Origin: Flavobacteriales bacterium
GTDB lineage: Bacteria; Bacteroidota; Bacteroidia; Flavobacteriales_F; PHOS-HE28
NCBI GenBank assembly: GCA_016721825.1
Contig: JADKHI010000002.1
Location: forward strand, 320,687 to 384,686
Direction of reading: 5' to 3'
Length of the DNA stretch: 64,000 nucleotides
Both the position numbers and the translations under genes were made by a program. Each line of letters starts with the position of its first letter. Within the stretch, counting starts at the first letter, position 1. Below are positions 36,989 through 37,141 of the stretch, in pieces. The notes under the pieces were generated by a model. It saw only the letters and a program-made list of their open reading frames with translations, searched no databases and was not told the DNA's origin.

Positions 36989-37141
36989 GGGGGGGGGGGG
37001 GGGGGCGCGGGGGGGGGGGGGGGGGGGGGGGGGGGGGGGGGGGGGGGGGGGGGGGGGGGGGGCGGGGGGGGGGATGGGGGGCGGGGGGGGGGGGCGGGGG
37101 CGGGGGGCGGCCGCCGGGGGGGGGGGCGGCTGGGGGTGGGG
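36989..37141. repeat. about 150-nt G-rich tract (over 90% G) with uninterrupted runs of about 17 and about 54 G
   Basis: Read directly: G run 36989-37005, GCGC interruption, G run 37009-37062, then G blocks with sparse C/A/T interruptions to about 37141. Confidence 0.95.

Follow-up and report, generated by a model that had tools for sequence, protein, structure and literature searches.

An internal poly-G tract upstream of gldF in a Flavobacteriales metagenome-assembled genome: very probably a consensus artefact of long-read assembly

Homopolymer tracts involved in phase variation are usually shorter than about 20 nt, and their position is conserved among strains, with only the length being variable. 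Poly-G, in turn, is what two-colour sequencing instruments classically yield in cycles without signal, HiSeq X being a four-colour instrument. Here, a poly-G tract was analysed within a window of 64,000 nt (G000:C2:320687-384686), which lies inside a 720-kb contig, far from the contig ends, of an assembly comprising 6 contigs and 3.89 Mb, with a GC content of 60.6% and a completeness of 88.9%. The tract is contained in the non-coding gap between gldF and a gene for a TPR protein (36902-37629, 728 nt). According to a run-length scan, it starts with G17 at 36989-37005, followed by CGC and by G54 at 37009-37062, after which come G blocks of 10, 6, 12, 5, 6, 11 and 5 nt spaced by C, A or T, the interruptions becoming ever more frequent up to about 37141. 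Both the sequence and the run lengths agreed exactly with the description given in an initial annotation of this DNA. The composition of the tract was 136 G, 13 C, 3 T and 1 A, and the GC skew rose up to +0.90 within it, compared to about 0 in the flanks; a G54 run cannot have arisen by chance at the GC content of this genome. The gap had also been described as lacking any credible coding sequence, which was borne out, as no Pfam match was found for the ORFs within it (36928-37521, 37199-37633 and 37224-37571). Moreover, no known RNA of any Rfam family was detected in 36700-37800 at E-values up to 1. As judged from sequence comparisons, the tract is very likely to be a consensus artefact of long-read (Nanopore-type) metagenome assembly, absent from the DNA of the organism.

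Flanking genes and the empty site in relatives

The two genes bordering the gap are real (Table 1). On the left side, GldF starts with the ATG at 36901 on the minus strand, the accompanying gldG matched TIGR03521, and the sequence up to 36967 showed a nucleotide identity of about 93-100% to the same-species assemblies. On the right side, the TPR gene has its stop at 37630, and other assemblies were found to encode a protein of 100% identical sequence, which was inspected in six of them. In addition, an ORF of 409 aa (36176-37405, minus strand) prolongs the gldF frame through the tract, with the poly-C of that strand being read as poly-Pro; this ORF is false, the ATG at 36901 being the true start of GldF, and automatic annotation could give an over-long GldF from this frame.

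In the genus, ten or more further genomes had gldF and the TPR gene next to each other, about 100-300 nt apart; among them are G017, G005, G003, G002, G008, G012 and G013. Furthermore, the six inspected assemblies with the identical TPR protein, all of the same species (GCA_016719255.1, GCA_035909465.1, GCA_016714845.1, two from Logan and one from ENA), had the gldF start situated 137 nt past the TPR stop. These assemblies were 97.6-100% identical to the window at the DNA level on both sides of the gap, and every BLAST alignment ended at window position 36967 and resumed at 37632, with 73 nt in between. A 29-mer representing the empty site had three matches in metagenome contigs, all of them with the 73-nt spacer and with flanks 93-99% identical to the window, while a 28-mer over the left junction of the tract had no match in metagenome contigs. 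Thus, 9/9 independent same-species assemblies (three NCBI MAGs, two from Logan, one from ENA and three metagenome contigs), with a flank identity of about 93-100% that was at least 97.4% in eight of them, presented a spacer of 73 nt, compared to 664 nt (36968-37631) in the window. The closest sister species (G046) had 73 nt at this site too. No counterpart of the poly-G tract was present at the gldF-TPR locus in any of the nine same-species assemblies or in the genus relatives examined.

The spacer between gldF and the TPR gene was hypervariable across the genus, and those of G046 and of the species of the window, although both 73 nt long, were unrelated. In G017 (contig C35, L017 about 2905-3055), the spacer contained four tandem CAAGGGACAAGTGT repeats. 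In G046 (contig C13, L016 2990-3495), about 506 extra nt without a match in G000 were found between gldG and gldF, which probably represent an extra small gene inserted in the operon.

A chimeric join had been considered in the initial annotation, in which the two sides of the tract might not be contiguous in the organism, and a comparison of synteny with related genomes had been suggested as a check. This comparison was carried out on the gldF-TPR neighbours across the genus, and it told against a chimeric join. The join is not false, because the two genes lie side by side across the genus and nine same-species assemblies connect 36967 to 37632; a chimeric contig was therefore ruled out. As the two genes are truly contiguous, readings of the gldFG neighbourhood need not fear one.

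Table 1. Features at the gldF-TPR locus and at the related loci of the same assembly (positions without a contig name refer to the window)
Feature	Position	Strand	Basis or remark
gldF, 241 aa, real gene	36176..36901	-	TIGR03518 GldF equivalog, 322.9 bits
Native gldF upstream sequence, clean	36902..36967		Common to all same-species assemblies; alignments all end at 36967
Noisy junction with a possible left inverted-repeat-like IS end (TGTCGGAAAGGGGTTGTC, 36971-36988)	36968..36988	+	Resembles the terminal repeats of the C1 element
Poly-G tract	36989..37141	+	Very probably garbled consensus, putatively in place of about 865 nt of IS interior (orfA and 5' part of orfB)
IS 3' part with the C-terminus of orfB plus the right inverted repeat, depleted in A, C and T	37142..37562	+	Alignment to C1:8667-10091
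Spacer adjoining the TPR stop, about 68 nt	37563..37631		Native 73-nt spacer in a divergent, or likewise garbled, form
TPR protein gene, 289 aa, real	37630..38499	-	Pfam TPR families; conserved gldF neighbour
Intact IS3-like element, about 1.43 kb	G000:C1:8667-10091 (L015 1469-2893)	-	orfA and orfB, imperfect terminal inverted repeats
Poly-G tract, G14...G56	C1:309248-309342 (L018 3249-3343)		Directly after helicase motif VI (HRIGRTGRA)
C and G runs, about 190 nt	C1:1022199-1022390		In a 231-nt stretch absent from G046, whose flanks abut
A, C and G homopolymers over about 960 nt, with A48 as the last run	C1:1253950-1254913		Homopolymer scan; unmatched in G046
G28 from a garbled tandem-repeat unit	C4:365594-365784		123-nt unit degrading stepwise

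A garbled insertion sequence and further junk tracts

The sequence to the right of the tract (37142-37562) matched the 3' part of an intact element on contig C1, which was the only full copy in the six contigs. This element combines the features of the IS3 family, namely a DDE (rve) orfB, an overlapping orfA, a length within 1.2-1.5 kb and terminal inverted repeats. In particular, its orfB product (315 aa) matched the integrase-core families rve (3e-18) and rve_3 (6e-16) of Pfam, its orfA, which overlaps orfB by 4 nt, had no Pfam match, and its terminal inverted repeats, as seen by eye, were imperfect, beginning with TG and ending with CA. A DNA search for homologues of the IS part of the window in 40 other genomes of the genus found none, the C1 copy being the only match.

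With the last 560 nt or so of the element aligned, the window copy differed from the C1 copy almost exclusively by the loss of bases. BLAST gave 354 identities, 15 mismatches and 90 gap positions, all the gaps being deletions in the window copy. A global alignment with cheap gap penalties gave 420 matches, 1 mismatch and 136 deleted bases in 69 events, without insertions, and one with blastn-like gap costs gave 415 matches, 6 mismatches, 126 deleted bases and no inserted ones. Moreover, the losses were unevenly distributed among the bases, as 66 of 147 A, 44 of 170 C and 22 of 102 T were deleted compared to only 4 of 138 G (chi-square P-value of about 1e-14). The surviving IS part of the window lacked 24% of its bases, and its identity to the C1 copy was at least 99% when gaps were left out. 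Regarding the position of the losses, the deleted fraction was 0.08-0.20 over IS positions 1561-1800, 0.22-0.32 over 1321-1560 and 0.52 in the bin adjoining the tract, past which the IS sequence passes over into the G blocks. This increase is a general trend rather than a strictly monotonic one, as the bin at the far end (1801-1860) had a deleted fraction of 0.42. The error profile against this trusted IS template was thus one of non-biological deletions. Nothing in biology corresponds to the selective removal of A, C and T from one strand, which is a failure of consensus calling or basecalling. Accordingly, the stretch that had been annotated as a transposase-like relic is of transposase origin, being the 3' part of an IS3-like element, but it is a garbled copy with non-G deletions rather than a relic.

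At the other end of the tract, the 18 noisy bases of TGTCGGAAAGGGGTTGTC resembled by eye the terminal repeats of the C1 copy, TGTCTTGTCCTGACGGAGGTTGAC and TGTGTCGTCCTGAAAAAGGTTGAC, so that 36968-36988 might tentatively be regarded as the left end of the IS. A target-site duplication of the IS was sought and was unreadable amid the noise. The whole IS copy would then be represented between gldF and the TPR gene, with the tract standing for about 865 nt of its interior. The IS interior replaced by the tract holds 288 G and the tract holds 136; as leftover G of the interior, these counts are compatible (136/288, and 92/151 for the helicase tract described below) and prove nothing. Finally, the segment adjoining the TPR stop (37563-37631) opens with TGGCTAA like the native spacer and is otherwise, by eye, loosely similar to it; deletions alone cannot turn the native spacer into this segment, and it may be a real divergent allele.

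A genome-wide scan for homopolymers of at least 10 nt revealed four further junk loci in the same assembly (Table 1), located at unrelated sites, one of them damaging a conserved helicase. This DEAD-box helicase, encoded around position 309k of C1, matched the Pfam families DEAD and Helicase_C. At the place of the tract, G046 has 429 nt, which include 42 more residues and the stop, compared to 103 nt in G000, of which 89% are G; hence the deposited helicase ends in a run of Gly, with its last 42 codons replaced. The sister tracts of this genome included runs of A48 and C31. For the C4 tract, G was again largely spared, and the deletions amounted to 10 of 78 G, 24 of 42 A, 40 of 78 C and 20 of 48 T, with 94 bases deleted in total and 6 inserted. 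The gradient ran from left to right at the C4 and helicase loci and in the opposite direction in the window; at all three, the junk consisted of G on the deposited strand.

The C4 tract is embedded in a tandem array (C4:365392-365990) of a 123-nt unit (GGATCGCATGCTAGCTCCCCCTCCACCCCCTCGCTGTTCC...), one copy of which ends in the garbled G28. Otherwise, the array looks genuine and REP-like, and short units related to it also come after the DEAD-box helicase gene.

Origin of the tract

Runs of at least 25 G were found in 35 of the 121 genomes of the genus, and among those with known contig counts heavy loads appeared only in few-contig assemblies. All four genus MAGs with names of the type OdNE_18-Q3-..., EsbE_18-Q3-..., Vibo_18-Q3-... 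and Ribe_18-Q3-... presented such runs, with 100, 416, 222 and 734 matching positions, respectively, and their contigs were named in the CANU style (tig000...). On the other hand, six genus MAGs that other projects had assembled from long reads or as hybrids (HK-STAS-BACT-57, 5N033 'ont', STL-BAC51, AC1.1, AC3.41 and an OPERA hybrid) had no G run of at least 25 nt. The occurrence of the tracts therefore followed the sequencing and assembly project and not the phylogeny.

Besides G000, 34 genomes of the genus had a match, and in 26 of these the runs of at least 25 nt on the deposited strand were more often of G than of C, with G:C examples of 416:0, 449:0 and 887:0, counted as overlapping positions and not as tracts. 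This excess of G on the deposited strand across the genus is suggestive, as such a bias is unexpected for real DNA because the orientation of contigs is arbitrary.

MAG names of the form 'xxx_18-Q3-...' belong to a study based on PromethION R9.4.1 reads basecalled with Guppy 2.2.3 flip-flop, assembled with CANU 1.8 (corMinCoverage=0, corOutCoverage=all) and polished with Racon (--include-unpolished), twice with medaka 0.6.5 and finally with Racon using Illumina HiSeq X reads (PMC8012365). These CANU and Racon settings retain unsupported, uncorrected and unpolished sequence. The two same-species JADK MAGs and the common tract signature suggest that the assembly of the window is part of the same Nanopore/CANU dataset.

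The origin put forward in the initial annotation was that poly-G tails of two-colour Illumina reads had entered the assembly or its short-read polishing, possibly with a false join. Small runs of at least 25 G were indeed found in a few fragmented genus MAGs of the short-read type (G005, G018 and G036), and G081 had one at 34 nt from a contig end. Nevertheless, such an origin is very improbable for this tract, which is internal to a 720-kb contig and lies at a genuine gldF-TPR join. Tails of this kind would not yield a gradient into an IS copy stripped of non-G bases only, and dark cycles cannot give 960 nt of A, C and G runs including A48. Besides, the heavy loads were restricted to few-contig MAGs, and the matching study used HiSeq X, from which dark-cycle poly-G is not expected because it is a four-colour instrument. 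The two-colour explanation thus probably does not apply.

The same annotation had offered, as its alternative, a biological G-quadruplex or i-motif element, that is, real DNA of this strain in which a G/C homopolymer of more than 50 nt beside an IS3 insertion upstream of gldFG would form such a structure or act as a hypermutable switch. The tract does stand in the deposited sequence, at a distance upstream of gldF (87 nt from its start) that would suit a switch, and an IS insertion is plausible at a spacer that is hypervariable in the genus. If true, no other homopolymer switch or G-quadruplex element known beside a bacterial motility operon would come near it in length. However, none of the nine same-species assemblies and none of the genus relatives examined has the tract at this locus, which leaves this reading unsupported and exceedingly unlikely; the strand-specific, G-sparing errors of the artefactual flank have no biological mechanism, the sister tracts of the same genome destroy the C-terminus of a conserved helicase, and the tracts track a sequencing project instead of a lineage. 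It is equally hard to credit that the junk is confined to the G tract and that the IS fragment beside it is a genuine transposase relic, truncated and decayed long ago, for which it can be said that no intact ORF is left and that the transposase tail is spread over three reading frames. Natural decay consists mostly of substitutions, whereas here 1-6 mismatches stand against 126-136 deleted bases with no insertions and G spared. Moreover, the copy is young, given its near-complete identity to the C1 copy outside the gaps, and assemblies without it match its flanks with an identity of up to 100%.

The absence from nine assemblies, the deletion-only and G-sparing errors, the recurrence within the genome and the restriction to a dataset all favour the consensus artefact, which had also been judged the most likely reading in the initial annotation. 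As its origin, the following is proposed. The reads behind the contig would have carried a 1.4-kb IS3-like element, the same as that at C1:8667-10091, between gldF and the TPR gene, while most of the population would have had only the 73-nt spacer at this site. Support would have been poor over this repeated and strain-variable insertion, and a step of consensus calling, polishing or basecalling would have progressively dropped A, C and T and kept G. The loss would have been about 10-20% of the bases near the 3' end of the IS and about half of them nearer the tract, with only G left in the interior to form the G17 and G54 runs. A real IS insertion would accordingly underlie the junk, and from the comparison alone it may be a strain-specific one. 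Among the candidate steps, the polisher is slightly favoured: the direction of the gradient differs among the three loci, and yet the deposited strand shows G as the junk base every time, which would fit a contig-level step better than a strand-specific failure of single reads.

Significance and comparison with known systems

The tract is without biological importance and its value is one of data quality. Internal junk tracts are present in this public MAG, a species representative, as well as in four or more of its sister MAGs within the genus, and they create false ORFs, truncate real genes, such as that of the DEAD-box helicase, and hide insertions of mobile elements. Their signature, a loss of A, C and T with retention of G that leads to a pure G end on the deposited strand, is easily screened for, which gives it some practical value for a MAG set in wide use, and it could be used for masking before annotation, repeat mining or surveys of G-quadruplexes. 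In a literature search, no description was found of a Nanopore poly-G assembly artefact with this signature.

As regards known systems, the tract is similar to phase-variable contingency loci in that a G/C homopolymer precedes a surface or motility operon; unlike these, it reaches 54 nt and more, is missing in 9/9 same-species assemblies and has an artefactual flank. In contrast to IS3-family elements, the copy in the window is neither functional nor naturally decayed, and about 865 nt of its interior would be represented by G runs only. With the tails of two-colour Illumina reads (NextSeq/NovaSeq), the tract shares a long non-biological run of G, but those tails are found at the ends of reads or contigs and are pure G, whereas the tract is internal, grades into real sequence and has poly-A and poly-C sister tracts. 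The closest likeness is to the garbled or unpolished regions of low support in MAGs from Nanopore R9.4-type data, where homopolymer junk appears inside clean long contigs, at repeats or strain-variable insertions, and which are dominated by deletions, absent from same-species assemblies, present several times per genome and specific to a dataset. The difference from the usual regions of this type is that an intact paralogous template here allows the origin of the junk to be followed base by base.
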